Below, in pieces: positions 17,790 through 64,000 of a stretch of DNA of 64,000 nucleotides (position 1 is its first letter; each line of letters starts with the position of its first letter). The notes beneath the pieces are model-generated. The model was not told the DNA's origin. It worked only from the letters and a program-made list of their open reading frames with translations, and did no database searches. The stretch is taken from NCBI GenBank assembly GCA_012960245.1, contig DUBO01000038.1, forward strand, positions 10,627 through 74,626, written 5' to 3'. Source of the stretch: Candidatus Binatota bacterium. GTDB taxonomy: Bacteria; Desulfobacterota; Binatia; UBA1149. Made by a program: the position numbers and the translations under genes.

Positions 17790-17812
17790 AACCCAGCTTA
17801 GCGGCTACAGTG
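17790..17812. promoter_or_regulatory. Copy C of a recurrent upstream element (aaacccagCTTAGCGGctacag), ~60 bp upstream of a sigma-54-type promoter
   Basis: 16/17-nt match to copy B (aaacccagGTTAGCGctcgaag). Same spacing to the -24 box as copies A, B and D. Confidence 0.45.
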
Positions 17813-17866
17813 CCGGAGCATGGACGCCCGGCGGGTAGTAGCGCCTCGCGGCGCTTGTGTCGGATG

Positions 17867-17882
17867 CGGCACAGCGATTGCA
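17867..17882 (+). promoter_or_regulatory. Sigma-54-type promoter (cGGCAC-agcga-TTGCa) for the FG-GAP/Cys-repeat gene
   Basis: GG-N10-GC spacing. 66 bp upstream of ATG 17948. Confidence 0.5.
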
Positions 17883-17947
17883 ACGTTAAAGGAAAAGAAT
17901 ACAGCGGCGGGAGCCTTACAGGGGCCCCTGCCGGGGGGACAGATAAC

Positions 17948-20900
17948 ATGACCACTGAATACCATTCATCGATTTACCGCAGCGATCCCATGGGCCCAGG
18001 CGCCGCTTGCGTCGCAGTGCGGGGTTTTTCTTTGCTCGCGCTGGCAGTGCTTGCCATCACGCTGACAGCCCAGCAGGCCCAGGCGGTACCGGCCGAGGTC
18101 TCGGCCCAGGCCGTGAGCGGCCACGATTACCTGGGCGGTGGCGCGCTGGCCACCGATTCGGGCCGCGGCGTGGCCGTGGGCGATCTTGACGCTGACGGCT
18201 TTGACGACATCGCCATAGGCGTGCCCGGCAGCGACCACGTGTGCCTTGTACGCGGGCCCATCGCCATGGGAGCAGCGCCCGAAGACGTGAGCGTGCTTTG
18301 CAAAGCCGGCGCCGTCGCGCCCAACGCCTTCCGCATCAACGCACCCACGGCCTTGACGGGCAGCGGCGGTTTTGGCCTGGGCCTTGAGATTGCCGACATC
18401 GACTGCGACGGGCAGAACGACCTCATCATCGGTGACCCACTGGCCGATCCGGTGGCCGGCCTCGCGGGTGGAGTAAAGGTTGATGGCGGTGCCATCCACG
18501 TGCTGCACAAGTCGGCGGGACTTGTGTGGGGACAGGAAATATTTGCCGATAACTGGCGCCTGTACACCGGGGGCAACGGCTACTCGATAATGAGCGGTGG
18601 CGCGCAACTGGAAATGTTCGGCTACCCGGCAGCCGGCGATATAGACAACGACGGACTGGTCGACCTCGTGGTCGGCGCACCCATACACCGCCACGGATTC
18701 GCCCGCGCTGGACGCGTGTACCTGCTTGGAACCGCGGCCGTGGTCGAGTTCAACTTCTGCGCCAACGGCCCCATCAACAATCCCGTCTCCCAGCCCTTGA
18801 GCATCATGGACGGCGCGCCGGCCTGTGGCGGCTCCTGCTCCTGCGTCGCTTCGGCCTGCATCGACATGAAGAAAGACGACGCCTGGTTCGGCCAGGGCAT
18901 TGACGTGGCCGACGTCAATGCCGACGGCATCGACGACCTCGTGGTCGGGTCTCCCAGCGACGGCGTGGCGGTGGAATCGCGCGTGTACATCAAGTACGGA
19001 CCCATAGCGGCTTCGCCCGCGGTCTACCCGGTGGACTTTCCCTCGCCTTATTCCAGCGCCGACAGTTGCATAGGAGACGGCGACGCGGCGTTTGATCGCC
19101 TCGGCACAGACCTGGCCGCCGCCGACTACGACGGTGACGGTAAGCTCGAACTCTACATTGGCGCGCCCTTGTATTCCGGAGGCGGAATGGTCCAGAACGG
19201 CGGCGTCTTTGCGCTGACGGGCGGAAACTACGGCGCCCTGACCACGTCCATATCCACCGCACCCGTGGTCTGGTACGGCAAGGTCAACGACGGTAATCTC
19301 GGCTGGGGCGTAGACCTCGGCGACCTCGATGACGACGGCGCCCTCGATCTCTCGGTTGGCGGCTCGGGCATAGGCGACCCCAACGGCAGCACGCACGTAA
19401 TAAAAGAACCCGCCCCCGACCCCTGCCTGACCCTGGTGTGCAATGACGCCAACGAGTGCACCTCGGACTCCTGCGCGCTGGGCGCCTGCGTGTTCACGCC
19501 GGTGGCCAACGGTACTGCCTGCACCGACGACGGACTTTACTGCACTGGCACCGAGACCTGCCAGGCGGCGGTCTGCACCAGCGCCGGCGACCCCTGCGCG
19601 GGTGGCGCCGAATGCGACGACAGTTGCGACGAAGCAGCTAACAGCTGCGCGGTGGCGGTGAATACAGCCTGCACCAGCGACGGCAACGAATGCACCGACG
19701 ACGCGTGCGACGGCACGGGCGCCTGCGCGCATCCGGCCGTGGCCAACGACACTGTCTGCACCGACGACGGACTTTACTGTACTGGTTCAGAATCCTGCCA
19801 GGCTGGAGCCTGCACCAGCGATGGCGACCCCTGCGTCGGTGGCGCCGAGTGCGCCGACAGTTGCGACGAGGCGGCCAACAGCTGTGACGTGAGTGCGGGA
19901 ACAGCCTGCACGAACGACGGCAACGAATGCACCGACGACCAGTGCGACGGAGCGGGCGCCTGCGCGCATTCGGCCGTAGCCAACGGAACGGCCTGCTCGG
20001 ACGACGGGCTTTACTGCACGGGCACCGAGACCTGCCAGGCCGCGTCCTGCACCAGCGCCGGCGACCCCTGCGCGGGTGGCGCCGAGTGCGCCGACAGTTG
20101 CGACGAGGCGGCCAACAGCTGCGACGTGAGCGCTGGCACCGCCTGCATCGATGACGGCAACGAGTGCACCGACGACGAGTGCGACGGCGCGGGCGCCTGC
20201 GCGCATCCGGCCCTGGCCAACGGAACGGCCTGCTCGGACGACGGGCTTTACTGCACGGGCATTGAGACCTGCCAGGCCGCGGTCTGCACCGGCGCCGGTG
20301 ACCCCTGTTCAGGGCTGGGCGTGTGCTTCAGCTGTGACGAGGCCGCCGATAGCTGCGACGACACCGACGCCGACGGCGACCTGATCTGTGGTCCCGATGA
20401 CAACTGCGCCGCCGAGTACAACCCGGACCAGCTCAACAGTGACTGTCCCCCTGGAGGCACCGACACCGGCTTCGGTGGCATAGACTGCTCGGCTCCCCTG
20501 GGCGCCAACGAAGCGGGCTGCTGTGACGGTGGCGATGTATGCGACGCCTGCCCGGCCAACAACGACAACTCGAAGTGCGACGCCGGCCTGTCGGGCGGCG
20601 AGAGCATCGGGGCCGCAGGAGGCAGCTTCAGCCTCGGTGGCTGTCTAAGCGTAACCATCCCTGCCGGCGCCCTGGCGGCCGACACCAGTATCTCTGTGTC
20701 CACAGGGCTCAACGCTTCGACCAACCCGCTGATAGGCGGCGACCCGATCAAGCTGAAGAAGGCCGGTGGATCGTCAGTTCACAAGTACATAATACTGCCG
20801 CACGGACAGTCATTCCTCGTGCCCATCACGCTGGGATTCTGCTGGGACGACGCCGATAACGATGGCACGGTTGACCTCGGGACCTGTGATCTCGACGCGT

Positions 20901-21820
20901 CGCTGACCTGCGACGACAACGCCGACTGCGGTGCTTTTGCCCCCTGCAACGGTGGCGGGAGCATGGCTGAAAACAACCTGCTGCTGCGCCGCGAGGGCAA
21001 GAACTTTGACTACGCCGGCTTTGGGACTTCGGCGCCCGGCAGTGTCCAGAAATGCGGCGACGCCGAACACCAGAACGTGGGCACCTGCGGGCCCGCCGCG
21101 GCAGTAGCAGACTGCACGGACGCGCCCGGGGTCGACGAAGCCAGCGTGGCCAACTGCTGCGACACGGCCGGCAACTCCTGGCCCTGGCAGACCTGCAACT
21201 TCTCCGAGTACTACTTCGGAGAACTTTCCGGCGACCTTATACCAGGCAAGGGCAGCGAGAAGACCGACTGTCACCTCGAGTGGAGCGTGGTCAATCCTTT
21301 CAACACCGAGGACAAGTACGACAGGAGAGGCCTGCTCAACTACAAGCAGGACTGCACCGATGGTGACGCCAATTGCGACAAGGACGGCGAAGCCAACGGG
21401 GTGTGTATCTTCGAAATCGGCCTTTGCCTGAACGTCGACGACAGTCGCCTGTTCGACAAGAAGACCCTCGACCCGGTCTGCACCCCGACAGCGACCGACC
21501 TGTTCCAACTCAAGAAACCCCGGCCCAACAGTCGCAAGCTGCACGAGGCCGAGGCGGCCGAGGCGCTGCTGGCCGCGGTGATGGAGCTCGACGTGGAGGC
21601 AACGATCGGTGGCCGCAGGCTCAACGAGGTGACCTTCTCGGGTCTCGGCTACGACAACGGCGACGCCTGCACCAATACATTCCAACTCGAGGTGCCGCTC
21701 AACGGACGCTCCAAGGCCAAGGGCAAGCTCAAGGCCGGCGTAGAAACCGTAGCCTCGGAAACCCTGCGCGCAACCAAGGACAAGGACACGCTCAAGTTTA
21801 CCTGTTACAGCAGCGAGTGA
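17948..21820 (+). CDS. Large secreted FG-GAP (integrin-alpha-like) repeat protein with tandem Cys-rich 79-aa repeats and thrombospondin-type-3-like Asp-rich segment
   Basis: Signal peptide (LLALAVLAITLTAQQAQA). >=6 FG-GAP-like units (GDLDADGFDDIAIGVPG, ADIDCDGQNDLIIGDP, GDIDNDGLVDLVVGAP...). Repeats NGTACTDDGLYCTGTETCQAAVCTSAGDPCAGGAECxDSCDEAANSC. Then DTDADGDLICGPDDNC. Confidence 0.8.
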   Translation: MTTEYHSSIYRSDPMGPGAACVAVRGFSLLALAVLAITLTAQQAQAVPAEVSAQAVSGHDYLGGGALATDSGRGVAVGDLDADGFDDIAIGVPGSDHVCLVRGPIAMGAAPEDVSVLCKAGAVAPNAFRINAPTALTGSGGFGLGLEIADIDCDGQNDLIIGDPLADPVAGLAGGVKVDGGAIHVLHKSAGLVWGQEIFADNWRLYTGGNGYSIMSGGAQLEMFGYPAAGDIDNDGLVDLVVGAPIHRHGFARAGRVYLLGTAAVVEFNFCANGPINNPVSQPLSIMDGAPACGGSCSCVASACIDMKKDDAWFGQGIDVADVNADGIDDLVVGSPSDGVAVESRVYIKYGPIAASPAVYPVDFPSPYSSADSCIGDGDAAFDRLGTDLAAADYDGDGKLELYIGAPLYSGGGMVQNGGVFALTGGNYGALTTSISTAPVVWYGKVNDGNLGWGVDLGDLDDDGALDLSVGGSGIGDPNGSTHVIKEPAPDPCLTLVCNDANECTSDSCALGACVFTPVANGTACTDDGLYCTGTETCQAAVCTSAGDPCAGGAECDDSCDEAANSCAVAVNTACTSDGNECTDDACDGTGACAHPAVANDTVCTDDGLYCTGSESCQAGACTSDGDPCVGGAECADSCDEAANSCDVSAGTACTNDGNECTDDQCDGAGACAHSAVANGTACSDDGLYCTGTETCQAASCTSAGDPCAGGAECADSCDEAANSCDVSAGTACIDDGNECTDDECDGAGACAHPALANGTACSDDGLYCTGIETCQAAVCTGAGDPCSGLGVCFSCDEAADSCDDTDADGDLICGPDDNCAAEYNPDQLNSDCPPGGTDTGFGGIDCSAPLGANEAGCCDGGDVCDACPANNDNSKCDAGLSGGESIGAAGGSFSLGGCLSVTIPAGALAADTSISVSTGLNASTNPLIGGDPIKLKKAGGSSVHKYIILPHGQSFLVPITLGFCWDDADNDGTVDLGTCDLDASLTCDDNADCGAFAPCNGGGSMAENNLLLRREGKNFDYAGFGTSAPGSVQKCGDAEHQNVGTCGPAAAVADCTDAPGVDEASVANCCDTAGNSWPWQTCNFSEYYFGELSGDLIPGKGSEKTDCHLEWSVVNPFNTEDKYDRRGLLNYKQDCTDGDANCDKDGEANGVCIFEIGLCLNVDDSRLFDKKTLDPVCTPTATDLFQLKKPRPNSRKLHEAEAAEALLAAVMELDVEATIGGRRLNEVTFSGLGYDNGDACTNTFQLEVPLNGRSKAKGKLKAGVETVASETLRATKDKDTLKFTCYSSE
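19506..20330 (+). repeat. Intragenic near-identical tandem DNA repeats, 237-bp unit (~3.5 copies), encoding the 79-aa Cys-rich repeat
   Basis: gccaacgg/acnnn...tttactgcac unit recurs at ~19506, 19743, 19980, 20217. The ORF track shows near-identical antisense mini-ORFs at 237-bp offsets (19537-19761, 19774-19983, 20011-20220). Confidence 0.8.
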
Positions 21821-24538: not shown

Positions 24539-27340
24539 CTACAGGCACAGGCAGCCCGGTGCGCCGGTGGGATCGACGGTACAGACCTGGGCGGGATCGG
24601 CGCACACCCCGTTGCAGGTGGGTCCGCCAAGCGACTCGCAGGGGTCCTCGGGTGGATCAACGCACTCGCACTCCTGCAGCCCGGCGCTGTACTCGCAGAC
24701 CTGGCCGGGATTAATGCACACCCCGTTGCAGGTGGGTCCGGCCAGCGACTCGCAGGGGTCCTCGGGCGGGTCAACGCACTCGCACTCCTGCAGTCCGGCG
24801 CTGTACTCGCAGACCTGGCCGGGGGTGCTACACCACCCGTCACAGGTGGGTCCGGCCAGCGACTCGCAGGGATCCCCCGGCGGGTCAACGCACTCGCACA
24901 GGGCGGCAGTCACTACACCCGACTGCTCACAGAGCTGAGGATACGGGCAGGTGCCCGCGCAGGCAGGCGACGACGCCACGACGCAGGGCAACAGCTTCCA
25001 CGGCCAGCAGCTACCGTCCGTCACGTCGTTGTCGAACTGGTCGCAGTCATACTCCAGGTTGTCAACGCCGTTGATCAGCCGCGCCATGCGCGCAAGTGCG
25101 ACCCTTTGGACACAGTCCACGAACGCCGCCGGCGCGACAGAGCGGTCAGCGAGTGCGCACTCACCGGGAAACGCCAGCCCGAGATCCACCGTCGCGCACT
25201 TCTTTAACACCGCCTTCTCTACCTTGGCGACCGACCGCGCCAGTTTGCCGCGAGCGTCAGTCTTGATCGCCTCGAAGCCTTCGACCAGCGGACCGGGAAG
25301 TACCGGCAACTCCGGCACTTCGAGCAGGCCTTTCTTCTTCCAGTACGCAAAGCTCCCCAGGCCCGATTTCATTACCCCGCCCATGGCCTTGAATACGACC
25401 GCCTGGCAGCGAGCGCCGTCCCGGTCAATGTCATCCGCGATAATCGCTGCGTCGGCGTCGTCACCCAGCAGGTCAACGAGCGTTCCTACCTCGTGGTCGA
25501 GCACCTCGGCCGCGGCGTCGGCCGCCGCCACGTAGCCATAGGGGGGCGCCGGATTGAGCGCGAAGACTTCGCACTTCGTCGTGTCCACCTTTTCCAGCTT
25601 GGCGATAGCCTTTGCCACCTTGCCCCTGCGATCGGCCCGAACACACTCGGCCACGCTGGCCTCGCGCCCGCGACCGGCATCCTTGACGCAGGAGGCATTC
25701 TCTTTTTCCTGGACCTTGGCCAGCTTGAACGCCGCCTTGTTCATGGCGGCAATGCAGCCCGGGGCGCCCTCCGGAAATTCGAACGCCGAGGTGCAATCGT
25801 CGAAGCAAAAGGGACTACCCCCCTCGCTGAACGGCGGATCACAGTCTTCGCCCGGGCCGACCATGCCGTCGCCGCAGATCGCCCCGCGCGCGAACAGGAT
25901 GTCCCAGTCATTGTCGATGCCGCCCGTGTCGTATTCACTCGCCCACACCGCCACCCAGTTGCCGGCGCTGTCGCTTGTCAGCTGGGGGACGAAGTCCCAG
26001 ACAGAATCAACAGCAGCGTGGCTGTTGAGCGGCGCCGCAGCGCTCCAGGTCGCACCGTTGTCGGTCGAGCGCGCGAACAGGATGTCAGGATCATCACCGA
26101 TGCCGCCCGTATCGTAGGAACTCTCCCACACCGCCACCCAGTTGCCGGCGCTGTCGGTTGTCAGCTGGGGGTAGGAGTAATTCCAAAGACTAGAAAAATC
26201 CGAAGAATCAGAATCAACAGCAGCATAGCTGTTAAGCGGCGCCGCCGCGCTCCAGGTCGCGCCGTTGTCGGTCGAGCGCGCGAACAGGATGTCATAATCA
26301 TCACCGATGCCGCCCGTGTCGTATTTACTCCCCCACACCGCTACCCAGTTACCGGCGCTGTCGGTTGTCAGCTGGGGGGGCAGGTCATCATAGTCACCAC
26401 CAGGATCAACAGCAGCGTAGCTGTTAAGCGGCGCCGCAGCGCTCCAGGTCGCGCCGTTGTCGGTCGAGCGCGCGAACAGGATGTCATAATCACTACCGAT
26501 GCCGCCCGTGTCGTAGCGACTCCACCACACCGCCACCCAGTTGTCAGCGCTGTCGGTTGTCAGCTGGGGGAATAAGTCAGAATCACCATCCCACCCAGGA
26601 GAATCAACAGCAGCGTAGCTGTTAAGCGGCGCCGCAGCGCTCCAGGTCGCGCCGTTGTCGGTCGAGCGCACGAACAGGATGTCAGAATCATTACCGTAGC
26701 GACTCCACCACACCGCCACCCAGTTGCCGGCGCTGTCGGTTGTCAGCTGGGGGGACCAGTCAATAGTACCGTCACCAGTACTTGGGCTGTGAAGCGGCGC
26801 AGCGGCGCTCCAGGTCGCGCCGTTGTCGGTCGAGCGCGCGAACATGATGGCAGGATCAGTAGTCGGGTACCCACTGGTCCACACCGCCACCCAGTTGCCG
26901 GCGCTGTCGGTTGTCACCGGGACCCCCCCGCCGTTGTTGATTGGGTTCCAATTCCAGTCAGTGTTAACTGTTGCGTAGCTGTTAAGCGGTGCGGCCGCGC
27001 TCCAGGTCGCGCCGTTGTCGGTCGAGCGCGCGAACAGGATGTCCCAATCACCACCTATGCCGCCGGTGCCGTATTCACTCCTCCACACCGCCACCCAGTT
27101 GCCGGCGCCGTCGGTTGTCAGCTCGGGGACCCTGTCCCCGTTAGAACTGCTATACCCACCATGAAAATCAACAGCAGCGTAGCTGTTAAGCGGCGCCGCA
27201 TCTCCGAACTTCATGCCGGCGGCTCCCACCGGTGCGGCCGACAGTACCAGCATCGCCAGCACCGCCACCGTTAAAGCCGCTACGCTCACAACGCTCCGGA
27301 CAGTCTCCAACCTTGAAATTGAAACCACGTCTGAATCCAT
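24539..27340 (-). CDS. Secreted BNR/Asp-box repeat protein (sialidase-like beta-propeller repeats) with myxo_disulf-like unit and C-terminal 6-Cys tandem module
   Basis: Signal/TM N-terminus. ~9 repeats of ILFARSTDNGATWSAAAPLNSYAAVD (SxDxGxTW Asp-box). ICGDGMVGPGEDCD. C-terminal 3x PCESLAGPTCxGxCxxPGQVCEYSAGLQECEC. Confidence 0.8.
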   Translation of the reverse strand: MDSDVVSISRLETVRSVVSVAALTVAVLAMLVLSAAPVGAAGMKFGDAAPLNSYAAVDFHGGYSSSNGDRVPELTTDGAGNWVAVWRSEYGTGGIGGDWDILFARSTDNGATWSAAAPLNSYATVNTDWNWNPINNGGGVPVTTDSAGNWVAVWTSGYPTTDPAIMFARSTDNGATWSAAAPLHSPSTGDGTIDWSPQLTTDSAGNWVAVWWSRYGNDSDILFVRSTDNGATWSAAAPLNSYAAVDSPGWDGDSDLFPQLTTDSADNWVAVWWSRYDTGGIGSDYDILFARSTDNGATWSAAAPLNSYAAVDPGGDYDDLPPQLTTDSAGNWVAVWGSKYDTGGIGDDYDILFARSTDNGATWSAAAPLNSYAAVDSDSSDFSSLWNYSYPQLTTDSAGNWVAVWESSYDTGGIGDDPDILFARSTDNGATWSAAAPLNSHAAVDSVWDFVPQLTSDSAGNWVAVWASEYDTGGIDNDWDILFARGAICGDGMVGPGEDCDPPFSEGGSPFCFDDCTSAFEFPEGAPGCIAAMNKAAFKLAKVQEKENASCVKDAGRGREASVAECVRADRRGKVAKAIAKLEKVDTTKCEVFALNPAPPYGYVAAADAAAEVLDHEVGTLVDLLGDDADAAIIADDIDRDGARCQAVVFKAMGGVMKSGLGSFAYWKKKGLLEVPELPVLPGPLVEGFEAIKTDARGKLARSVAKVEKAVLKKCATVDLGLAFPGECALADRSVAPAAFVDCVQRVALARMARLINGVDNLEYDCDQFDNDVTDGSCWPWKLLPCVVASSPACAGTCPYPQLCEQSGVVTAALCECVDPPGDPCESLAGPTCDGWCSTPGQVCEYSAGLQECECVDPPEDPCESLAGPTCNGVCINPGQVCEYSAGLQECECVDPPEDPCESLGGPTCNGVCADPAQVCTVDPTGAPGCLCL

Positions 27341-27602: not shown

Positions 27603-27890
27603 ATGGACGATGAGACCCGCAAGAAGGTTCTGACCCGGCTCAACCGGGCCGAGGGGCAGGTGGCGGCCCTGCGGCGCATGGTGGAGCAGGACACCTACTG
27701 CGTGGACGTGCTCACCCAGGTCGCGGCCGCCCAGGGCGCGCTCGGGCGCGCGGGCGAGATGATACTGTCGAACCACATCGAGACCTGCGTCAGCCACGCG
27801 TTTGAAAGCGGCAGCGCCGACGACCGCGCGGCCAAGGTAGACGAGCTGATGGAAGTGTTCTCGCGCTACAGCCGCATAGGGGCGCGCTGA
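27603..27890 (+). CDS. csoR: CsoR/RcnR/FrmR-family metal-sensing transcriptional repressor
   Basis: LTRLNRAEGQVAALRRMVEQDTYCVDVLTQ...NHIETCV: Cys-His-Cys W-X-Y-Z ligand pattern of the CsoR family. ATGA overlap with downstream permease. Confidence 0.8.
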   Translation: MDDETRKKVLTRLNRAEGQVAALRRMVEQDTYCVDVLTQVAAAQGALGRAGEMILSNHIETCVSHAFESGSADDRAAKVDELMEVFSRYSRIGAR

Positions 27891-29086
27891 TGGTTTTCCT
27901 GGCCGAAGCCTGGGGCGTGATGCTCTCGCTGGCACCCTGGCTGCTGCTGGGCGCCGTCGTGGCCGGTCTGCTGCACGTCGCGCTCCCGGCCGGCTTCGTA
28001 CACCGCGAGCTGGGCGGGCGGCTGGGCGTTCTCAAGGCCGTCGCGCTGGGCGTGCCGCTGCCGCTTTGTTCCTGCGGAGTCATCCCCGCCGCGCTGGGGT
28101 TACGTCGCGACGGCGCCGGTCGCGGTGCCACGGTTGGATTCCTGATAAGCACGCCGCAGACCGGTGTTGACTCGGCCCTGGTGAGCGCGTCGTTCCTCGG
28201 CTGGCCCTTTGCCCTGTTCAAGATAGCGGCGGCCGCGGTCACGGGCATAGCCGGCGGTTACCTGGCGGGCGCGGTTTCGCCGGGAGCCGTACAAGGCGAC
28301 GAACAACAGTCGCCCGACGAACAGGCCGAGCGCAGCCTGCGGGGAATGGCGTCACACTCGATCAGTATCCTGCGCACCATATGGCGCTGGATCGCCGTGG
28401 GCGTGCTGGCGTCGGCCGCAATCTCGACCTGGGTACCGCCGGGCTCACTGGCCGGGCTGGGCAGCATGGCCTCTATGCTGGCGGTGCTGGCCGTGTCGGT
28501 GCCGCTGTACGTGTGCGCGACCGGCTCGGTGCCCATAGCCGCGGCCCTGGTTGCCGGTGGCCTGCCCGCGGGCAGCGCGCTGGTATTTCTCATGGCTGGC
28601 CCGGCCACCAACGTGGCCACCATCGGTGCCGTCTACCGGGCGCTGGGTGGCCGCACGCTGGCCGTGTACCTGGGCACCATCGTTGTCGGATCCATTGCAG
28701 CCGGCCTGCTGTTCGACTCGCTGCTGCCCGTGGGAGCCGCTGCCCTGCCCCACCACGGCAACGGGCCGGCCTGGTGGGAACTGGGCTCGGCGTTGCTGCT
28801 CACGGGAGTGCTCGCGTGCTTTGCCGTGGGCGAACTGCGCACGGCGCTTACCCGGGCCATGACCTCGCGCAGGACGGCCGACCTCGAGCTGACCGTCGAA
28901 GGCATGACCTGCAACAACTGCCGCACGCGACTGGAGACAGCGCTGCTGGCGACACCGGGCGTCAAATCGGCGGTCGTCGTGCTCGAGCCGGGCGGCGCCA
29001 GCGTATGGGGCGATGTCGACGAGCAAAAGGTCCGCGAAGCGATAAGCGAGGCCGGCTACACCCCCCTGCCGGCCACGGGTGACTGA
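27890..29086 (+). CDS. ArsP_1/DUF318-type permease fused to C-terminal heavy-metal-associated (HMA) domain
   Basis: Polytopic membrane protein with LPLCSCGVIP and VPLYVCATGSVP motifs (ArsP/DUF318 family). C-terminal GMTCNNC HMA motif. Confidence 0.65.
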   Translation: MVFLAEAWGVMLSLAPWLLLGAVVAGLLHVALPAGFVHRELGGRLGVLKAVALGVPLPLCSCGVIPAALGLRRDGAGRGATVGFLISTPQTGVDSALVSASFLGWPFALFKIAAAAVTGIAGGYLAGAVSPGAVQGDEQQSPDEQAERSLRGMASHSISILRTIWRWIAVGVLASAAISTWVPPGSLAGLGSMASMLAVLAVSVPLYVCATGSVPIAAALVAGGLPAGSALVFLMAGPATNVATIGAVYRALGGRTLAVYLGTIVVGSIAAGLLFDSLLPVGAAALPHHGNGPAWWELGSALLLTGVLACFAVGELRTALTRAMTSRRTADLELTVEGMTCNNCRTRLETALLATPGVKSAVVVLEPGGASVWGDVDEQKVREAISEAGYTPLPATGD

Positions 29087-55029: not shown

Positions 55030-55728
55030 CTACTGGCACACGCAGAATGCCGCCACTGGATCGCCTACGAACGTGCACTGCTTGGTGGTATCGGCGCAAT
55101 CGCCACCGCAGGTGGGAGCGCCTGACTGTTCGCAGGGATCGCTCTGCTCGGGCTCGCATCGGCAAGCCAGGGTACCGGCTATATTCGTGCACACGTCGGT
55201 CGGATTGGGGCAGTCGCCGTTACAGGTCGGGGCACCGGACTGTTCGCAGGGGACCGGCTGGTCGAACACCTTCCAGGCGGGCGTGCACATCTTGGTGGTC
55301 CTGAAACCGGCGATCTCGCGCTGGCCAAACTGGTCAACCACGTCCTGGGCACTGGGCGGCATCGCGCCAGTAGGATCCTTGGGGCAGCGGATCTTGTAGC
55401 AGAGAAAGTCGTTGGTCAGGTCCTGGCCAACCACGTCCTCGTGCGGGGCATCGCGCTTGTTGTTGGGCTGCATGATGCGATCTTTATTGACCGGCAGGCA
55501 GAACTCCTTGCTCTTGACCATTATCCTGCAGCCGGCTTCGCTCGGGTACATGGATTGGTCAGAGTTTGTGATGAGATCGGCTACCGCCGAGTACCTGTGA
55601 GAATCCTTGATCTTGTAGCACTTCAGGTGGTCGTTGACGTTCTGGGCCTGCGAGATTGCGGGCAGCGCCAGGGCCAGGAAAGCTACGGTTACTGTTGCTG
55701 TTACTATTGCTGTGATTGCCTTGTTCAT
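55030..55728 (-). CDS. Small secreted Cys-rich protein with C-terminal 2x 6-Cys module (PCEQSGAPTCxGDC...C.C) shared with the BNR protein
   Basis: Signal peptide MNKAITAIVTATVTVAFLALALPAISQA. KCYKIKD / LCYKIRCPKDP motifs. C-terminal tandem Cys module. Confidence 0.7.
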   Translation of the reverse strand: MNKAITAIVTATVTVAFLALALPAISQAQNVNDHLKCYKIKDSHRYSAVADLITNSDQSMYPSEAGCRIMVKSKEFCLPVNKDRIMQPNNKRDAPHEDVVGQDLTNDFLCYKIRCPKDPTGAMPPSAQDVVDQFGQREIAGFRTTKMCTPAWKVFDQPVPCEQSGAPTCNGDCPNPTDVCTNIAGTLACRCEPEQSDPCEQSGAPTCGGDCADTTKQCTFVGDPVAAFCVCQ

Positions 55729-55930: not shown

Positions 55931-56986
55931 CTAGAGCGAGAAAATACCCAGTAGCAGGCCACAACCGGTGAGAGCCATCAGGGGGCCATCACAGGTATGC
56001 GGGCTCACGGCTTCGGCAAGCGTCAGCCCAAGGGGAATAACGGCCACCGCCACCAGGAATTGTTCGGGCGTAAACACCGGGACGGCCGACAGGAACTGGT
56101 ATCCACACAGCACCACGACCGAAACGATAAACACCGTCGCACTACCCTCCAGGGATCGTACGAACTGCCCACTCCAGATACGCCCGTTGTGCCACAGGGC
56201 CTTGGTGCGGTACTTGTGCTTGCCGAAACGGATACCCACCGGTTCGGCGAGGCCGTCACCAAATTCGTTTATCAGTTGCGGCACGAGAACGATGAAGGGA
56301 TTGGCGACCAGCGCCATGAAAGGCAGGTATACGGCGAAACGAAACACGTCCTCGAGCATGTCATAACGCAGGGAATATGGCCTATCCTCCAGCCGATCCC
56401 ACGAAACGAACGCGTACCGGAACAACGCGACCCGGCGCCGAACGCGATGATACTCGAGCCCTATGGTTTTCAACTGGCCGAGGCAGAACAGGAACGCTAT
56501 GTCGATAATCACCTTGTCGCCGCTTACTATGAGAAGCGGGATCACGAAGGCCGAGAGCTTCTTTACGGGGCGAAGAATCAGTTTGCGGACGTAATTGATC
56601 CGAACTCGGTGCCGCATCACGAGCCATGATGCGAAGAGTTTACCCGCGACTTCGACTACGATCGAGATGCCAAAAAAAGCCATTGCCGCCGTGTTAAGTG
56701 CCGGGAGTACGCCGACAGCCCCCAGTACCCCAAGCGTGGCGGCTACAGCCAGGTAAAACGGACCAAGTACGGCTACGAATCGGTCCTCGCCCCTCCAGTC
56801 ATAGGCCTCGTTCTCCAGCCCGTAAGGATCGGCATACAGGCGGGCGAAATAGCCGTCCCGCGACTGGTGTACTGTCTCCTGGGATACCGGCCCTTCCCGC
56901 GTGATCGCCACCGCGGCCAAAGCGGCCCCCGGATACAGTGCCGCGTCGTTACCGGTCGGCTCGTTGGCAGTGCTGGTCCTTGTCAT
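55931..56986 (-). CDS. Integral membrane protein, CTP-dependent polyprenol/phytol-kinase-like (dolichol kinase/CDS superfamily)
   Basis: C-terminal FGDGLAEPVGIRFGKHKY...LEGSATVFIVS resembles the DGxAxxxGxxxGxxK...EGSxxxF motif of the CTP_transf_1/phytol-kinase family. ~7 TM. Confidence 0.45.
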   Translation of the reverse strand: MTRTSTANEPTGNDAALYPGAALAAVAITREGPVSQETVHQSRDGYFARLYADPYGLENEAYDWRGEDRFVAVLGPFYLAVAATLGVLGAVGVLPALNTAAMAFFGISIVVEVAGKLFASWLVMRHRVRINYVRKLILRPVKKLSAFVIPLLIVSGDKVIIDIAFLFCLGQLKTIGLEYHRVRRRVALFRYAFVSWDRLEDRPYSLRYDMLEDVFRFAVYLPFMALVANPFIVLVPQLINEFGDGLAEPVGIRFGKHKYRTKALWHNGRIWSGQFVRSLEGSATVFIVSVVVLCGYQFLSAVPVFTPEQFLVAVAVIPLGLTLAEAVSPHTCDGPLMALTGCGLLLGIFSL

Positions 56987-58342: not shown

Positions 58343-61300
58343 CTACTGGTCCAGCTGGCGAACCCTGTGTATTACCGCTTCGATTGTCACCGGCACGGGA
58401 CAGTTAACAATATGCCGAGCGTCGCTTGGCGAATTCGGATGCTCAAAATCATAGTTGTCAGACCCCACATTTGGCGGTGGCGGGAATTCAAGGACTTCCA
58501 ATTTACCCTCGGCCCTGAGCCGCTGAATCTGCTTGACCCCTTTAAGGACCTCGCTCGCCGGCTCCTTCCAGTGAGCAAAACCGATGTGCCACATCGGACT
58601 GTAATCGTCCTCTGGCCTAAAGTAGGAGGGCACTCCCACCTGGCTGCCGAACGGGCCACCACCCAGGAATCCAAAACCGTCGCTTGGCGTCGGTGGATAG
58701 GTTGGATCTATCGGCGCTGGGGGCAGCGACTGGATCAGGGGAACTCCGACGCTTCCAAGGTTCTTATACATTGGTACATAGGGGACTCCCATCGCCCTTG
58801 CCGGACCAAATGGATAGGTGTCCAGGACTATGTAGTAGGGAAGATAATCACCTTCTCCCGCCCAAGCCTTGTGAAGCTTGAAGGTGATCGACGGATCTGG
58901 TCCGACCGTGTCCAGTGCCAGCACATGCCCCGATGCGTCCCTGTCACCCCAGAATTCACCGTTGTAAAAACAAGTCGAGTTGGGAGGTTCATCTGGAAAA
59001 CTGACACAACTCAGGTCAATCCGATTGTGATGCCATTCCTCGTCGCCCCACTTTGCAAACACGGCATTAACGATAACATCCTGCCCGTCAATCGTGACTC
59101 GACGCAAAGGCGAATACGTATTCAGGTCATCAACGTCTGGAATTAAATCCGGATTCTTGCAGGGTCTTCCCGAACCGGAATCGATACCATCAGACACCCT
59201 GCAAGCCGGCGAGGCCCATATCGGATTGGGCACGTTCCCGTAAAACGTCCAGTGACCCGTAACTGGATCAATGGTTGCATCCCCGGTAGCCGCTATTGGC
59301 GTGCCGGTTAATTTACCAGCCCAGGCCAGGCCCATTTCCTCGGCCAGGGCTTCGTCGCTGATGTCGTGCAGGAAGAACCATACGGGGGTCAGTACGCCGC
59401 CGTCGTCGTTCGTTCCCTGCATCAGCGGGAAGGTAATGGTACCGCGTTCGTTGGGCTGCGGGTCAAGGGCGTCGCCGAGCGGAATATCCCTTATGTCGTC
59501 TAACTCGCCGATTACCGCCCCATCCACCCAGATATCCACAGGGTCAACCTGCGGTCCGTATTCGCCAACAGCGTCTCCGGTTCTGTATGTAGGCAGTGCG
59601 TGGGTGTCCACGTAGCTTACCCCGTCCCACGAGGGGATAGGTGTCGGCATGACCAGGGTCTGCCCCGGATGCTCAATATCCCAGCGCAACAGCATGGCGT
59701 GGTCCTCGTGCTGCGTGTTGTGGCAATGCTCCATGAAGGTGCCCGCGAACTCCCGGAAGCGAAGTGCGATCTCCACCATCACCCCACTGTCGGCCTGTGG
59801 TCCGAGCCGGTACACGTCCTTGCGAGCCCACTTTTCCCACTCGGGCGGCTCCTGGCCGTCACGTCTCAGTATGATCCCCTCCTCAAAGTGGATGTGTATC
59901 GGGTGGCTCCAGGTTCCGCTGTTGAGAAGGCGCCAGACCTCCAGCCCACCGGAATTTTTCTCGGGAGCCGCAGATAGACGGCGGGGGTCCATTCCGAACC
60001 CCTTGCCGCCATCGGTCTCTATGACCCAGGGGCGATCGTCGGTGGGCTGCCTCTCAAATTCAAAGGTGCGGTGAAGAGCCGCGTCCAGCTCTGCCTGCGC
60101 GGGCATCTGGATGGGGATCATCTTCTGCCCGCCGGCCACGTAGTCCATTGGATCAAGACTGTTGTCGACCCCGGCGTACTCGGTAACACGGAACTCCATG
60201 AATTTACCTACAACCGGGTCACCGTCGATCCAGCGGTCGGCAATGCCATCGGGGGGAACCGTGTCGTCGATGGTAACCGGTGCGTAGGCTCCGCTTACGA
60301 TATCGGCCAGGGGAATCACTTCGTCGGTGACTTGCCCGTTCTTGTGTTGCAGCAGGTTGACCAGGTACAGCTTGTCACCCGGTTCGAAGTTGGCAAAGTC
60401 GATGATGACGTCGTAGCGTTCGGCTATGCCGAGGGTCGGCAGCTCGCCGTTACTGAACTCCACGGCGTGCTCCATGATGTTGCCGTCGTTGGCAACCATG
60501 TGGAACGGGACCGGGTTGCCGGCCTCGTCGACCAGCGCCAGCTTGAAGTAGCGAGATACCGAGGCATTCAGGACGCGGAAGCGGTACCGGCGGGCACGAA
60601 CGTCGAAGTAAGGCTTGTACAGCCAGTTAACGGTCATAACGTCGCCGAGAAAGCCTTTCTGGTTGAAGGGGTTAAAACACAACTGCCCGTCACCATCAAA
60701 GGCTTTCTCTGCCAGCATCAGGTTGACGTCGTAATCGCGGTTGCCCCAGGGCAGCGCGGATCCACTGGGCAACCTCAGGTTGATGCCGTCATTGACGGAT
60801 TCGTTGCCGCGATCGAGTGAACTGTAATAGTTCATCATCGCGGCGCTGCCCTTGTAGACGTTCTGGGCAGTGAAATCGAGCATGTGATCGTGGAACCAGT
60901 GGGTGCTCATGGTCTCGTGCCAGTCGCCCTTGATCCGCTTTATGCCTCCGTTGCCCATGGGCATCCCTGCCCTTTTATCCCTCTTATTCGTATTGATGGA
61001 GTCGTGTCCTGCGAGCACCATCGGCCACCTGTAGTCGTAGAACTGGCCGGGAAAGAAAAACGCGTTGGCGAACCCGTCGCTCTCAGCCGGGTTATGGCCG
61101 TTGTGCTCGTGGGTGGTCAGCGTGTGAACACCGAAACCACGGTTCTCGGCGACGTCGATCGGTAACGCATTGTAGTGGCGCATTACCAGGGGCTCGCCAT
61201 AACGCGCGGTGAGCAGCTTGGGGGGAAAAGTTCCGTCGAAAGTCCACACCGCGTCCGGATCCTGCAAAGGCATGCTGGCATGAAACCGGACCTCGATTCC

Positions 61301-62083
61301 CGACGTCGTGCCATCGGATCCAGCTGGTTCCGCGGTTGAATGATACAGTCCTGTGGGCCCGAATTCACCGTGCCTGTAGCGATGCCTCTGAGCTCTATCA
61401 CGCAGGCCGCGATTCTCCCGACCACCGGTTGTCGCAGTCTTGAAGTAAACCCTGGGCTTGAACTCATCCCACCGCTGGTGTGCCCATCCTTCCCCAGGCG
61501 GTCGTCCTTCGATCGGGGGGTCGTCAAGATCGCGGCCCAACCATGATTCAATCTTCGACTCCCACGGATTCTCGTCCGAGGTATTCGCCTTGCGCTTGGG
61601 GATAGGCCATACCCGGGCTTTCAAAAACTTATCCAGTTTTACTGAACGCGGATAAGCCTGGGGGTTGGCTGGTTTGGGTAGCCGTTTATGTTTGGGGCTA
61701 TCTTCGGCATGAATTCCACGCTTTGTGGTCCCAAATTCTTCCAATCGCAACATTTTCTGGCTGAAAGGCGTTGCGCCAAAAAGCGGACTCGGTGGGTAAT
61801 CGGTTGGCACGTTGAAGGTGCCAGAATCCCGCTGGGCAGTCACCGGTATGGCATTCTGCTCGCGGGTGTCTTCGGGGGTTCCAGTCAAGCCCCCCTCAAA
61901 ACTCCCCTCGTTTGCCTCGGGCAAACCCTCTGGCAGATCTCCCACGATCGGACCCGCACACGCCGAAGGATCTCCGGAAGGCGGGCACTGGGCATGCAGC
62001 GTCGGTGGGAAAAAACACGCAATGGCCAGAAAAAATAACGAACAATACAACCCTGGAAAACAATACCTACTAACTCGTCTCAT
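58343..62083 (-). CDS. Large secreted multicopper oxidase (1246 aa) with ~480-aa C-terminal extension beyond the T1 copper site
   Basis: Signal peptide. Four Cu-ligand motifs in order: HTLTTHEHNGH, WFHDHMLD, HPIHIHFEEG, HCHNTQHEDHAM(L). Confidence 0.85.
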   Translation of the reverse strand: MRRVSRYCFPGLYCSLFFLAIACFFPPTLHAQCPPSGDPSACAGPIVGDLPEGLPEANEGSFEGGLTGTPEDTREQNAIPVTAQRDSGTFNVPTDYPPSPLFGATPFSQKMLRLEEFGTTKRGIHAEDSPKHKRLPKPANPQAYPRSVKLDKFLKARVWPIPKRKANTSDENPWESKIESWLGRDLDDPPIEGRPPGEGWAHQRWDEFKPRVYFKTATTGGRENRGLRDRAQRHRYRHGEFGPTGLYHSTAEPAGSDGTTSGIEVRFHASMPLQDPDAVWTFDGTFPPKLLTARYGEPLVMRHYNALPIDVAENRGFGVHTLTTHEHNGHNPAESDGFANAFFFPGQFYDYRWPMVLAGHDSINTNKRDKRAGMPMGNGGIKRIKGDWHETMSTHWFHDHMLDFTAQNVYKGSAAMMNYYSSLDRGNESVNDGINLRLPSGSALPWGNRDYDVNLMLAEKAFDGDGQLCFNPFNQKGFLGDVMTVNWLYKPYFDVRARRYRFRVLNASVSRYFKLALVDEAGNPVPFHMVANDGNIMEHAVEFSNGELPTLGIAERYDVIIDFANFEPGDKLYLVNLLQHKNGQVTDEVIPLADIVSGAYAPVTIDDTVPPDGIADRWIDGDPVVGKFMEFRVTEYAGVDNSLDPMDYVAGGQKMIPIQMPAQAELDAALHRTFEFERQPTDDRPWVIETDGGKGFGMDPRRLSAAPEKNSGGLEVWRLLNSGTWSHPIHIHFEEGIILRRDGQEPPEWEKWARKDVYRLGPQADSGVMVEIALRFREFAGTFMEHCHNTQHEDHAMLLRWDIEHPGQTLVMPTPIPSWDGVSYVDTHALPTYRTGDAVGEYGPQVDPVDIWVDGAVIGELDDIRDIPLGDALDPQPNERGTITFPLMQGTNDDGGVLTPVWFFLHDISDEALAEEMGLAWAGKLTGTPIAATGDATIDPVTGHWTFYGNVPNPIWASPACRVSDGIDSGSGRPCKNPDLIPDVDDLNTYSPLRRVTIDGQDVIVNAVFAKWGDEEWHHNRIDLSCVSFPDEPPNSTCFYNGEFWGDRDASGHVLALDTVGPDPSITFKLHKAWAGEGDYLPYYIVLDTYPFGPARAMGVPYVPMYKNLGSVGVPLIQSLPPAPIDPTYPPTPSDGFGFLGGGPFGSQVGVPSYFRPEDDYSPMWHIGFAHWKEPASEVLKGVKQIQRLRAEGKLEVLEFPPPPNVGSDNYDFEHPNSPSDARHIVNCPVPVTIEAVIHRVRQLDQ

Positions 62084-62499: not shown

Positions 62500-63810
62500 T
62501 TATTTTACCTTCACCGGGACAGCCACGACCTGTGTTCTCCCGGATTCAAAGGAAAGCGTCATATTGATGGTCTGACCTGCTTCCGCTCGCCGGACCGGTT
62601 CCATGAGCATAAGATGCTTGCCTCCCGGGGCAAGCTTCGCCTGCCCCCCCGGGGGCACCAGGAGTTGTTCGACCTCCCTCATTCTCATCAACCCGTCGAC
62701 AACCGCCATTTCGTGCACCTCTATGCGACCGAAGGCCGGGGACTCTACCTTGACCAAGGAAACAGCCTCCTGGCCGACGTTAACAAGGGTCATATATCCG
62801 GCGTTAGCCGGGGCCCTGGCGTCTGCCTCGCGCACCCAGGCATCCATGACCGCCAGCACGTCTCCTTCCGGCTCGGCGTCGGCAACCGGAGCTGCCTCCT
62901 CCCGCAGCTCGCCCATCGAAGCAAGGTAGACAAGCAGGTCATCGGCCTCCTGCCTGTTCAGCCGCATATTCGGCATGACCAGATTCCCCCACTCTTCGAG
63001 CATGGCTACCGCGATCGGGTCCTCGTCAGCAATCATTTTGTCTGGTGCCTGCAGCCATCCAAGAAGCCACTGGCGATCGCGGCGCCCTGTTACTCCCATG
63101 AGATCCGGCCCGAGTGCGCCGGGTCGGGTCTCGCCGTCGACCGTGTGACAAACTGAACAACGAGTCCGAAACAACTGCTCTCCCGCCGACATGGGCCGCA
63201 GCTCAGGCGCCTTGTGATAACTCTGCTTGGAAAGAGGAGGGCACTTGGGGCACAGGCCATTCAGCTGAGACGCAAGAATGTAGGGGTTTTCTGTCGGCGC
63301 TCGCTTCATCCACTGCCCGGTAGCCTGGTTGCCGATCATCATGTTCAAGTTGTGATCGCCACTTCCGTCCTGGATCTCCTCCACGTACAGGCCGAGCTTT
63401 CTACGTAGCAGCGTGATGTCTTCTTCGTTACCGGTGAAGAAATCCCAGTGCGCACCGAATCTATCCTTGTACTCGCTCAGTATCGGCGGCTGGTCGTGTT
63501 CAGGGTCGATAGAGATCGAATAAAAAAAGATATCGTCGCCAATTCGATCACCCAGTATGTCCTGGACCTTTTTCAGCTGGGCCGTCTCAAGGGGGCAACT
63601 GTCCGGACAGCTGGTGAAGATAAAGTTAACCGCGACGATCTTTCCCTCGATAAGGTCGTCGAAAAACCGCACCTGTTCTCCGTCCTGGTTGGTCAGTTCG
63701 ACGTTTGGAAAATAGTTCCTGCCCCATGACGCGGCCACGGCAGACGAATAGAAAGCCAGCACCAAGGGCAGCACGATAAACCACCGGCAAAATTTCAAGC
63801 TACTTCTCAC
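62500..63810 (-). CDS. Sco1/SenC - cytochrome c - PCu(A)C fusion copper-chaperone protein, membrane-anchored
   Basis: N-terminal TM. FIFTSCPDSCP (Sco CxxxC). CSVCH haem-c motif. C-terminal GGKHLMLMEP (PCuAC H/M motif). Start placed at GTG 63810 (RBS aaagggg), since the upstream ORF extension lies in AT-rich promoter-like sequence. Confidence 0.75.
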   Translation of the reverse strand: MRSSLKFCRWFIVLPLVLAFYSSAVAASWGRNYFPNVELTNQDGEQVRFFDDLIEGKIVAVNFIFTSCPDSCPLETAQLKKVQDILGDRIGDDIFFYSISIDPEHDQPPILSEYKDRFGAHWDFFTGNEEDITLLRRKLGLYVEEIQDGSGDHNLNMMIGNQATGQWMKRAPTENPYILASQLNGLCPKCPPLSKQSYHKAPELRPMSAGEQLFRTRCSVCHTVDGETRPGALGPDLMGVTGRRDRQWLLGWLQAPDKMIADEDPIAVAMLEEWGNLVMPNMRLNRQEADDLLVYLASMGELREEAAPVADAEPEGDVLAVMDAWVREADARAPANAGYMTLVNVGQEAVSLVKVESPAFGRIEVHEMAVVDGLMRMREVEQLLVPPGGQAKLAPGGKHLMLMEPVRRAEAGQTINMTLSFESGRTQVVAVPVKVK

Positions 63811-64000
63811 GCGAGAAGAGATACCCCTTTTTCGATTCAATACAACTAGTAGACTACATTTATCAGCGAACCGGACCATCGCCGGCACACCGTCCGATTG
63901 GCACGGAAATCAGGGCAACGAGCCCTGGTACGTCAAAGATGCGGCCGGCAATTTTTCCGAGTTTTTCTCGGGCATGGATCGCATCCTCGACGACGACGGC

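Follow-up and report, generated by a model that had tools for sequence, protein, structure and literature searches.

A six-cysteine tandem module at the ends of two secreted proteins of a Candidatus Binatota bacterium belongs to a family missing from current domain libraries

The 64,000-nucleotide stretch of Candidatus Binatota DNA analysed here (assembly GCA_012960245.1, contig DUBO01000038.1, positions 10,627 to 74,626; hereafter the window) encodes two secreted proteins, a BNR/Asp-box protein of 933 amino acids (aa) and a small protein of 232 aa, that are otherwise unrelated and yet both end in tandem copies of a ~35-residue unit with six cysteines, which we call Cys6. We found that Cys6 defines a family absent from Pfam, NCBIfam and the PDB, while its kind is a familiar one, that of the small Cys-rich tandem repeats of extracellular proteins. 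A shared C-terminal module, not recognised as any described domain, had been proposed in a sequence-only reading of the window, and our data bear this out and show the module to be mobile. We favour, with a probability of roughly 0.55, the view that the Cys6 array is a series of disulfide-rich structural beads forming a spacer or tail on secreted proteins. The features of the two genes, in window coordinates, are as follows.

24539..27340, minus strand: open reading frame (ORF) of the BNR/Asp-box protein, 933 aa, ending in a Cys6 array
27218..27340, minus strand: aa 1-41 of the BNR protein, a putative signal peptide or anchor with the hydrophobic core VVSVAALTVAVLAMLVLSAAPVGAAG
25826..27208, minus strand: BNR/Asp-box repeat region, about aa 45-505, matched by Pfam BNR, BNR_2 and BNR_3
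25001..25825, minus strand: middle region of the BNR protein, about aa 506-780, with one CGDGMVGPGEDCD motif, a Lys/Ala-rich segment and spaced Cys
24890..24985, minus strand: Cys6 unit 1 of the BNR protein, a degenerate copy (CVVASSPACAGTCPYPQLCEQSGVVTAALCEC) found by a looser six-Cys regular expression and as the fourth domain of the unit hidden Markov model (HMM)
24776..24868, minus strand: Cys6 unit 2 of the BNR protein, found by regular expression and unit HMM
24662..24754, minus strand: Cys6 unit 3 of the BNR protein, found by regular expression and unit HMM
24545..24640, minus strand: Cys6 unit 4 of the BNR protein, found by regular expression and unit HMM, with the protein end CLCL
24582..24899, no strand assigned: 114-bp DNA tandem repeat under units 2-4 (Tandem Repeats Finder, score 489)
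55030..55728, minus strand: ORF of the small secreted protein, 232 aa, comprising a signal peptide, a DUF7450-like domain and two Cys6 units
55645..55728, minus strand: putative signal peptide of the small protein, aa 1-28, ending ...ALPAISQA/QN and kept in all homologues (alignment A6)
55270..55632, minus strand: N-terminal all-beta domain of the small protein, with conserved columns in A6 and probably related to DUF7450
55156..55248, minus strand: Cys6 unit 1 of the small protein, found by regular expression and unit HMM
55036..55134, minus strand: Cys6 unit 2 of the small protein, found by regular expression and unit HMM, with the protein end CVCQ

A six-frame search of the window with the regular expression PC[ED]x4P[TS]CxGxC returned five matches, all of them in these two ORFs, and the unit HMM found no further carrier among the ORFs of the window. 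The HMM scores the small protein at E = 1.6e-21 with 2 domains, in agreement with the two units first read there, and the BNR protein at E = 4.9e-40 with 4 domains. For the latter only three units of ~36 aa had been counted; the tandem array is real, but it holds four units because the looser six-Cys pattern adds the degenerate first copy, and while a unit length of about 35 residues stands, the copies recur every 38 aa (114 bp). At the DNA level the repeat runs to 2.8 copies with 89% identity, whereas in the small gene the two units have diverged so far that no DNA tandem repeat is picked up. Both proteins do stop one residue past the last Cys, as had been noted. Units of the BNR protein are only ~50-55% identical to those of the small protein, no closer than to units of unrelated proteins elsewhere, and the two window proteins are therefore independent members of one family and not the product of a recent local copy.

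To define the family we built a 35-position profile (A3) from 22 units and searched it exhaustively against 1.84 billion protein cluster representatives. This returned 137 proteins at E <= 1e-3, of which 53 lie at E <= 1e-10, so the module is not confined to the two proteins of the window. Carriers possess between 2 and 20 units, and most of those that are full-length have a signal-peptide-like N-terminus by a crude test. Applied to the A3-matched proteins, a regular expression extracted 733 units from 139 proteins, and the spacing of their Cys is nearly constant, following the pattern (P)C-x7-C-[GDN]-G-x-C-P-x4/5-C-x6-9-C-x-C over ~35 residues: C1 and C2 are separated by x7 (mostly within 6-10), C2 and C3 by x3 in 725 of the 733 units, C3 and C4 by x5 or x6, C4 and C5 mostly by x6-9, and C5 and C6 by x1 in every unit. 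The complete six-Cys set is present in 669 of 745 HMM-aligned units, the remainder being edge truncations. Besides Cys, conservation is limited to Gly14 (99%), Pro17 (75%), Gly29 (68%) and Pro10 (55%), which are turn or structural residues. Aromatic residues are nearly absent (Trp 0.1%, Tyr 0.5%), the mean net charge per unit is -2.7, Cys content is 19% with one CxC in each unit and no CxxC or CC doublets, and the linkers between units span 3-8 residues of which 32% are Pro. A word-indexed search with the two-unit alignment A4 had yielded 345 candidates and no match; this null is an artefact of candidate collection, because a local hmmsearch scores the source proteins of A4 at 1e-40. Searches of the word-indexed type can silently miss short Cys-rich repeat families.

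Neither Pfam (2025 copy) nor NCBIfam 20.0 gave a true match to the module in the two window proteins, even at E <= 10. We discounted a Pfam match to Dpy-30, located on the VDPPEDP linker, as an artefact of low complexity. Across 126 other carriers, Pfam at E <= 0.01 matched the module only through two weak FOLN matches and one CC-domain, and NCBIfam returned no relevant match for seven strong carriers. Profiles of 22 and of 121 units gave nothing significant against all PDB sequences (best E = 0.13), Foldseek against the PDB returned 0 matches and thus no structural analogue, and the literature on DUF7450, on Binatota cysteine-rich proteins and on bacterial EGF-like domains held nothing relevant.

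The closest comparison is with epidermal growth factor (EGF)-like repeats such as those of fibrillin and Notch. Both are ~35-40 aa in length, hold six Cys and a small beta-hairpin (predicted in Cys6) with a strand ending in CxC, and occur as variable-number tandem arrays in secreted proteins; EGF-like arrays are set down as rod-like spacers, and Cys6 arrays may be likewise. The C2-x3-C3-x5-C4-x8-C5-x-C6 spacing of Cys6 parallels C1-C5 of EGF. In contrast to EGF, Cys6 ends at CxC without the terminal sub-loop (CxCxxG[FYW]...C) or its aromatic residue, possesses an extra Cys on the N-terminal side and Pro-rich linkers, and is hosted by uncultured bacteria. An AlphaFold2 (AF2) model of the two-unit module, which had been suggested as a check, reached a mean predicted local distance difference test (pLDDT) score of 80 and a predicted template modelling (pTM) score of 0.46, and displays short strands and a hairpin made of residues 22-26 (C4) and 31-35 (C5xC6), both at a pLDDT of ~80. 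In EGF the main hairpin has two strands, with C3 on one and C4xC5 on the other, and the modelled Cys6 hairpin has this arrangement.

Whether the unit is itself a divergent member of the EGF-like superfamily, and hence not new, is a question independent of its function. The parallel Cys register, the modelled hairpin and weak matches to FOLN (best E = 0.002) and EGF_CA all speak for membership, as does an hhalign alignment that places C3-C6 of Cys6 on C2-C5 of EGF, which is a lead rather than proof of membership at a probability of 0.9% (E = 0.06) and with an EGF set that was approximate. On the other hand no EGF-clan profile is significant on the module (EGF_CA at E = 3 and 8.3, 7-9 bits versus a cut-off of 27), the Foldseek search was empty, and the C-terminal sub-loop is missing while an N-terminal Cys is added; we consider membership possible but doubtful. 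An EGF- or granulin-type identity with a known role had been named as what would refute the first reading of the module, and neither gave a significant profile match. Granulin, with twelve Cys and CC doublets, was rejected as a candidate given the six singly spaced Cys of the unit, the lack of CC doublets and the lack of a Pfam match. We hold equally tentatively, at clearly less than even odds, that the unit is a new bacterial disulfide-rich fold, or an EGF-like one whose third disulfide is re-routed to a C1-C6 bond joining the two termini, and that uncultured Binatia, Myxococcota and allied lineages would employ it, much like EGF arrays in eukaryotes, for long, rigid, acidic rods on which enzymes and lectin-like heads are displayed or tethered at the cell surface or matrix. 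The EGF disulfide map is 1-3, 2-4, 5-6, and if the analogy holds, Cys6 would form C2-C4, C3-C5 and C1-C6, with C1-C6 replacing the C5-C6 loop of EGF. Natural variants missing a Cys pair do not occur among the HMM-aligned units, so these are uninformative on the disulfide map. If true, such a unit would be a prokaryotic counterpart of the EGF-repeat architecture, and it might in addition bind cations or minerals.

Other Cys-rich families resemble the unit in part. FOLN (PF09289), with its C-x4-C-x5-C-x8-C-x-C spacing, resembles C2-C6 of Cys6, and its matches to 2 of the 126 carriers are below threshold; a Kazal sub-domain comes after FOLN, whereas Cys6 units repeat on their own. The Myxococcus cysteine-rich repeat (TIGR02232, Pfam DUF4215; CGDG...EECD) is likewise found in secreted proteins of Myxococcota and the former ‘Deltaproteobacteria’, yet its CGDG/CGNG ... 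E-x-CDDGN motif is absent from Cys6, its spacing is different and there is no profile match; a motif of this type, CGDGMVGPGEDCD, sits upstream of the Cys6 array in the BNR protein itself. Fungal CBM1 shares a length of ~36 aa, disulfide stabilisation and a ‘QCGG’ start. CBM1 has four Cys and a flat binding face of three aromatic residues, whereas Cys6 has six Cys and less than 1% Trp plus Tyr, and CBM1 chains in the PDB gave only partial and non-significant matches (E = 0.32 and 1.2); membership is thus not supported. Metallothionein-like repeats carry CxC, CxxC and CC clusters with little regular secondary structure and form metal-thiolate clusters; Cys6 has one CxC per unit, no CxxC or CC, and predicted hairpins.

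The commonest architecture of the family, a signal peptide followed by a DUF7450-like domain and an extreme C-terminal Cys6 array, is found in 65 of the 137 carriers, and in most carriers the array ends the protein with a tail of 0-3 residues. In at least 17 of the 137, however, the array is internal or N-terminal, and a conserved domain of ~110 aa with the end RPNxxPCP comes after it; such arrays often separate this domain from LamG, beta-helix-like or ‘DSFFDVF’ heads. Dockerin-like segments open a few carriers. Since arrays are internal or terminal depending on the architecture, the module is a shuffled building block whose C-terminal position is optional. The ~110-aa domain follows the pattern ...W.P..C...YNVYR...D.D.DG.AD.YG.C...H.YLVT.EN..GEGS.G..S.G..RPN..PCP and had no Pfam match in P0033, the carrier in which this was checked; an anchoring or sorting function of this domain itself is conceivable. 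Its carriers, given by cluster (P) or locus (L), include:

P0014, P0023, P0033, P0034, P0046, P0047, P0056 and P0062
P0069, P0119 and P0143; L025, 4177-7998, minus strand; L062, 311-2086, plus strand

The small window protein represents the commonest architecture. Its residues 1-28 read as a classical signal peptide, and the ~125 residues of its N-terminal domain carry the motifs DHLKCYK ... DFLCYK.RC ... DQFG ... C.PA.K. Although the protein itself gave no match to DUF7450 (PF24247) at E <= 10, its homologues match over the same region, with E-values of 1.2e-5 (P0010), 1.6e-5 (P0017) and 3.1e-19 (P0024) and scores of 25.6 (P0010), 27.2 (P0015) and 69.7 bits (P0024) against a gathering score of 27 bits. 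By transitivity through these homologues the domain appears related to DUF7450, making the protein a typical, if divergent, member of its class. DUF7450 is matched at E <= 0.01 in 50 of 126 module carriers and maps onto their N-terminal domain, not onto the Cys unit. The AF2 model of the whole small protein is of low confidence (pLDDT 54.7). A 96%-identical relative, in the P0002 cluster, comes from metagenome-assembled genomes (MAGs) named candidate division UBP10 or Candidatus Binatota. Homologues have the N-terminal domain in common and vary in their C-terminal part:

P0002 and P0008: two Cys6 units
P0010: three Cys6 units
P0003: four Cys6 units
P0011 (NCBI ‘Candidatus Binatia bacterium’): seven Cys6 units
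P0004-6 and P0012: a CARDB domain
P0013: another Cys-rich stretch and PF13884

P0003 is 67% identical to the small protein and has four units to its two. In the paralogues P0004-P0006 and P0012 the N-terminal domain is 86% identical and CARDB replaces the Cys6 units directly past ...WKVFD, a clean case of a C-terminal module swap; the CARDB paralogue locus (L127, 6001-6822) is separate in the genome and adjoins acyl-CoA metabolism genes. CARDB and Cys6 are both modular extracellular building blocks that take the same C-terminal position, whereas CARDB is a ~100-aa beta-sandwich without disulfide dependence and of a fold unrelated to Cys6. In P0013 the DUF7450-like domain is joined to the other Cys-rich stretch (PTCGGDGASCAAGDACCDGLFCCEG...) and to PF13884 (Peptidase_S74 / endosialidase chaperone), which hints at fibre-like, self-processing proteins among some family members.

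In the BNR protein, residues 1-41 read from the translation as a signal peptide or anchor. Six SxDxGxTW motifs and Pfam matches to BNR_2 (8.9e-16), BNR (1.8e-15, 6 stretches) and BNR_3 point to a probable beta-propeller head, and the combination of a BNR head with a Cys6 array is unique among the sequences examined. Pfam and NCBIfam scans had no match in the middle region, where the CGDGMVGPGEDCD motif is of the Myxococcus Cys-rich-repeat type. Two Myxococcales MAG proteins of ~985 aa that end in Cys6 arrays (L073, 1732-4698, plus strand; L076, 4672-7623, minus strand) have N-terminal regions before their arrays that resemble this middle region in their spaced Cys, as judged by eye only. With the C-terminus alone as query, the word-indexed search found one close fragment only. 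The fragment homologue P0001 is 71% identical to the BNR protein and carries three units to its four, with unit 1 of the two proteins 93% identical.

We propose that each Cys6 unit probably folds as a small bead in which three disulfides surround a beta-hairpin, C4 lying on its first strand and C5-x-C6 on its second, and that the 3-8-residue Pro-rich linkers would join these beads into an acidic, semi-rigid rod of 2-20 units. As a mobile building block on secreted BNR propeller, DUF7450, LamG, beta-helix-like and dockerin-like heads, such a rod would most likely hold or stabilise a functional domain outside the cell, acting as a spacer or extension that resists proteases and stress and whose length would be tuned through tandem duplication and deletion. 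This proposal fits the restriction of conservation to structural residues, the near-absence of aromatics, the short, Pro-rich linkers, the copy numbers that vary between close homologues (4 versus 3 and 2 versus 4), the recent DNA repeat, the swap with CARDB in a paralogue of 86% identity that lies elsewhere in the genome, and the arrays that sit spacer-like between heads and the ~110-aa domain in at least 17 proteins. A common binding partner, another role suggested at first, may exist, but the near-absence of conserved non-structural residues argues against one specific conserved ligand. Several points nevertheless weigh against our proposal. Chief among them, the commonest architecture, both window proteins included, leaves the array as a free C-terminal tail, and a spacer placed there could keep nothing apart unless something were bound at its end. 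Moreover, the two-unit AF2 model has a pTM of only 0.46, and the bead-like fold draws on AF2 secondary structure and sequence logic, Foldseek having found no analogue; disulfide bonding, the geometry of the rod and its spacer role are accordingly proposed here as predictions.

The alternative that we take most seriously, while judging it unlikely, is that the array is a non-covalent attachment or adhesion module, a milder form of the anchoring role first suggested, in which the avidity of many weak repeats tethers the heads to lipopolysaccharide or exopolysaccharide, an S-layer, a mineral or cation-rich surface, or a partner protein. Such a role would suit the extreme C-terminal position in most carriers, the cell-adhesion-related CARDB domain that takes the same position in close paralogues, a repeat number as variable as in many adhesins, and a charge of -2.7 per unit that could bind cations or positive surfaces. 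It sits less well with the lack of conserved surface residues besides Cys, Gly and Pro, with a near-absence of aromatics that is unlike carbohydrate-binding modules, with the internal arrays of at least 17 of the 137 proteins, and with the lack of a conserved partner gene nearby. A metallothionein-like binder of Cu, Zn, Cd or an iron-sulfur-type centre, with the six Cys as thiolate ligands and serving as an extracellular or periplasmic metal buffer, would likewise draw on the acidic composition, together with the six absolutely conserved Cys, the CxC motif and the copper-handling genes within the window (neither Cys6 gene is adjacent to them). We regard this as improbable: signal peptides would send the proteins to an oxidising compartment; the rigid spacing, Gly/Pro turns and modelled beta-hairpins are those of disulfide domains; His and the CxxC and CC motifs are absent; typical metallothioneins have a Cys content above the 19% seen here; and no metal-binding family was matched.

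Least probable of all, and in our estimation very nearly negligible, is a C-terminal sorting or anchoring signal for sortase-, exosortase- or type IX secretion system-like machinery, which was among the roles first put forward for the module on the strength of a terminal ...C-x-C-X end common to two unrelated secreted proteins. The wider comparison does not support that proposal. The proteins stop 1 residue past the last Cys with no transmembrane or hydrophobic helix and no basic tail, whereas such signals consist of a signature motif with a hydrophobic helix and basic tail, or of a C-terminal domain of ~80-100 aa; the module occurs in 2-20 copies and, in the 17 or more proteins mentioned above, internally and followed by the ~110-aa domain, whereas sorting signals are single-copy and always at the extreme C-terminus; and NCBIfam, which includes LPXTG, PEP-CTERM, MYXO-CTERM, GlyGly-CTERM and Por_Secre_tail models, gave no match at E <= 1. 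No sortase, exosortase or dedicated secretion gene lies near either window gene, their neighbours being metabolic (luciferase-like oxidoreductases, a carboxyltransferase, an alpha/beta hydrolase, a P450, a sulfatase and an enoyl-CoA hydratase), and the neighbourhoods of relatives show no conservation beyond close strains. A ribosomally synthesised and post-translationally modified peptide or SCIFF-like precursor was also considered and rejected, as the arrays are on large signal-peptide proteins and no radical S-adenosylmethionine or maturase genes are nearby.

Several other genes of the window merit description. Encoded 200 bp upstream of the small-protein gene, and like it on the minus strand, is a Pfam-negative, predicted multi-pass membrane protein of 351 aa (55931-56986); its position is conserved in the close relative L121, and it is absent both at P0011, the one distant context checked, and at the CARDB paralogue locus (P0004). 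A few kb from the BNR gene, 17810-21820 (plus strand) encodes a 1336-aa FG-GAP repeat protein, probably extracellular, with a weak match to the Cys-rich repeat Dicty_CTDC and without a Cys6 unit by the unit HMM. The copper-handling genes encode a protein of 1246 aa that combines a multicopper-oxidase domain with DUF7482 (58343-62083, minus strand), an adjoining fusion of SCO1/SenC, cytochrome c and a PCuAC copper chaperone (62500-63888, minus strand), and, at 27890-29086, an ArsP-type permease with an HMA domain.

To survey the organisms that possess Cys6 we used a degenerate DNA pattern for tandem ‘CGGxCP’ on the species genomes of GTDB, a scan that is pattern-biased and gives a lower bound. 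About three quarters of the 120 matches listed are chance matches in GC-rich genomes, and this includes the matches in cultured Streptomyces and similar genomes, which were discarded. At least 28 loci among the matches listed were confirmed by HMM, all of them in MAGs, and these belong to Candidatus Binatia, to soil and groundwater bins named ‘Deltaproteobacteria bacterium’, and to Myxococcota/Myxococcales, with a few labelled Acidobacteriota or Gemmatimonadales. Among the loci checked, carriers of the module are thus known only from uncultured bacteria.

These findings add a new domain family that is missed by current libraries, and as a consequence annotation pipelines label hundreds of secreted proteins of uncultured Binatia and Myxococcota as ‘hypothetical’. 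By itself the family reveals no new mechanism. Annotation would benefit from a clean profile together with a solved structure, and these could show whether an EGF-like rod arose independently in bacteria. The unit, being a small, repeatable and probably very stable scaffold, may appeal to protein engineers. For the organisms themselves, the family marks modular extracellular proteins whose heads are of the BNR propeller, DUF7450, LamG, beta-helix-like or dockerin-like type, and, provided that its cysteines pair as we predict, it indicates that little-known lineages, mostly of soil, groundwater and marine habitats, rely on heavy extracellular disulfide chemistry.

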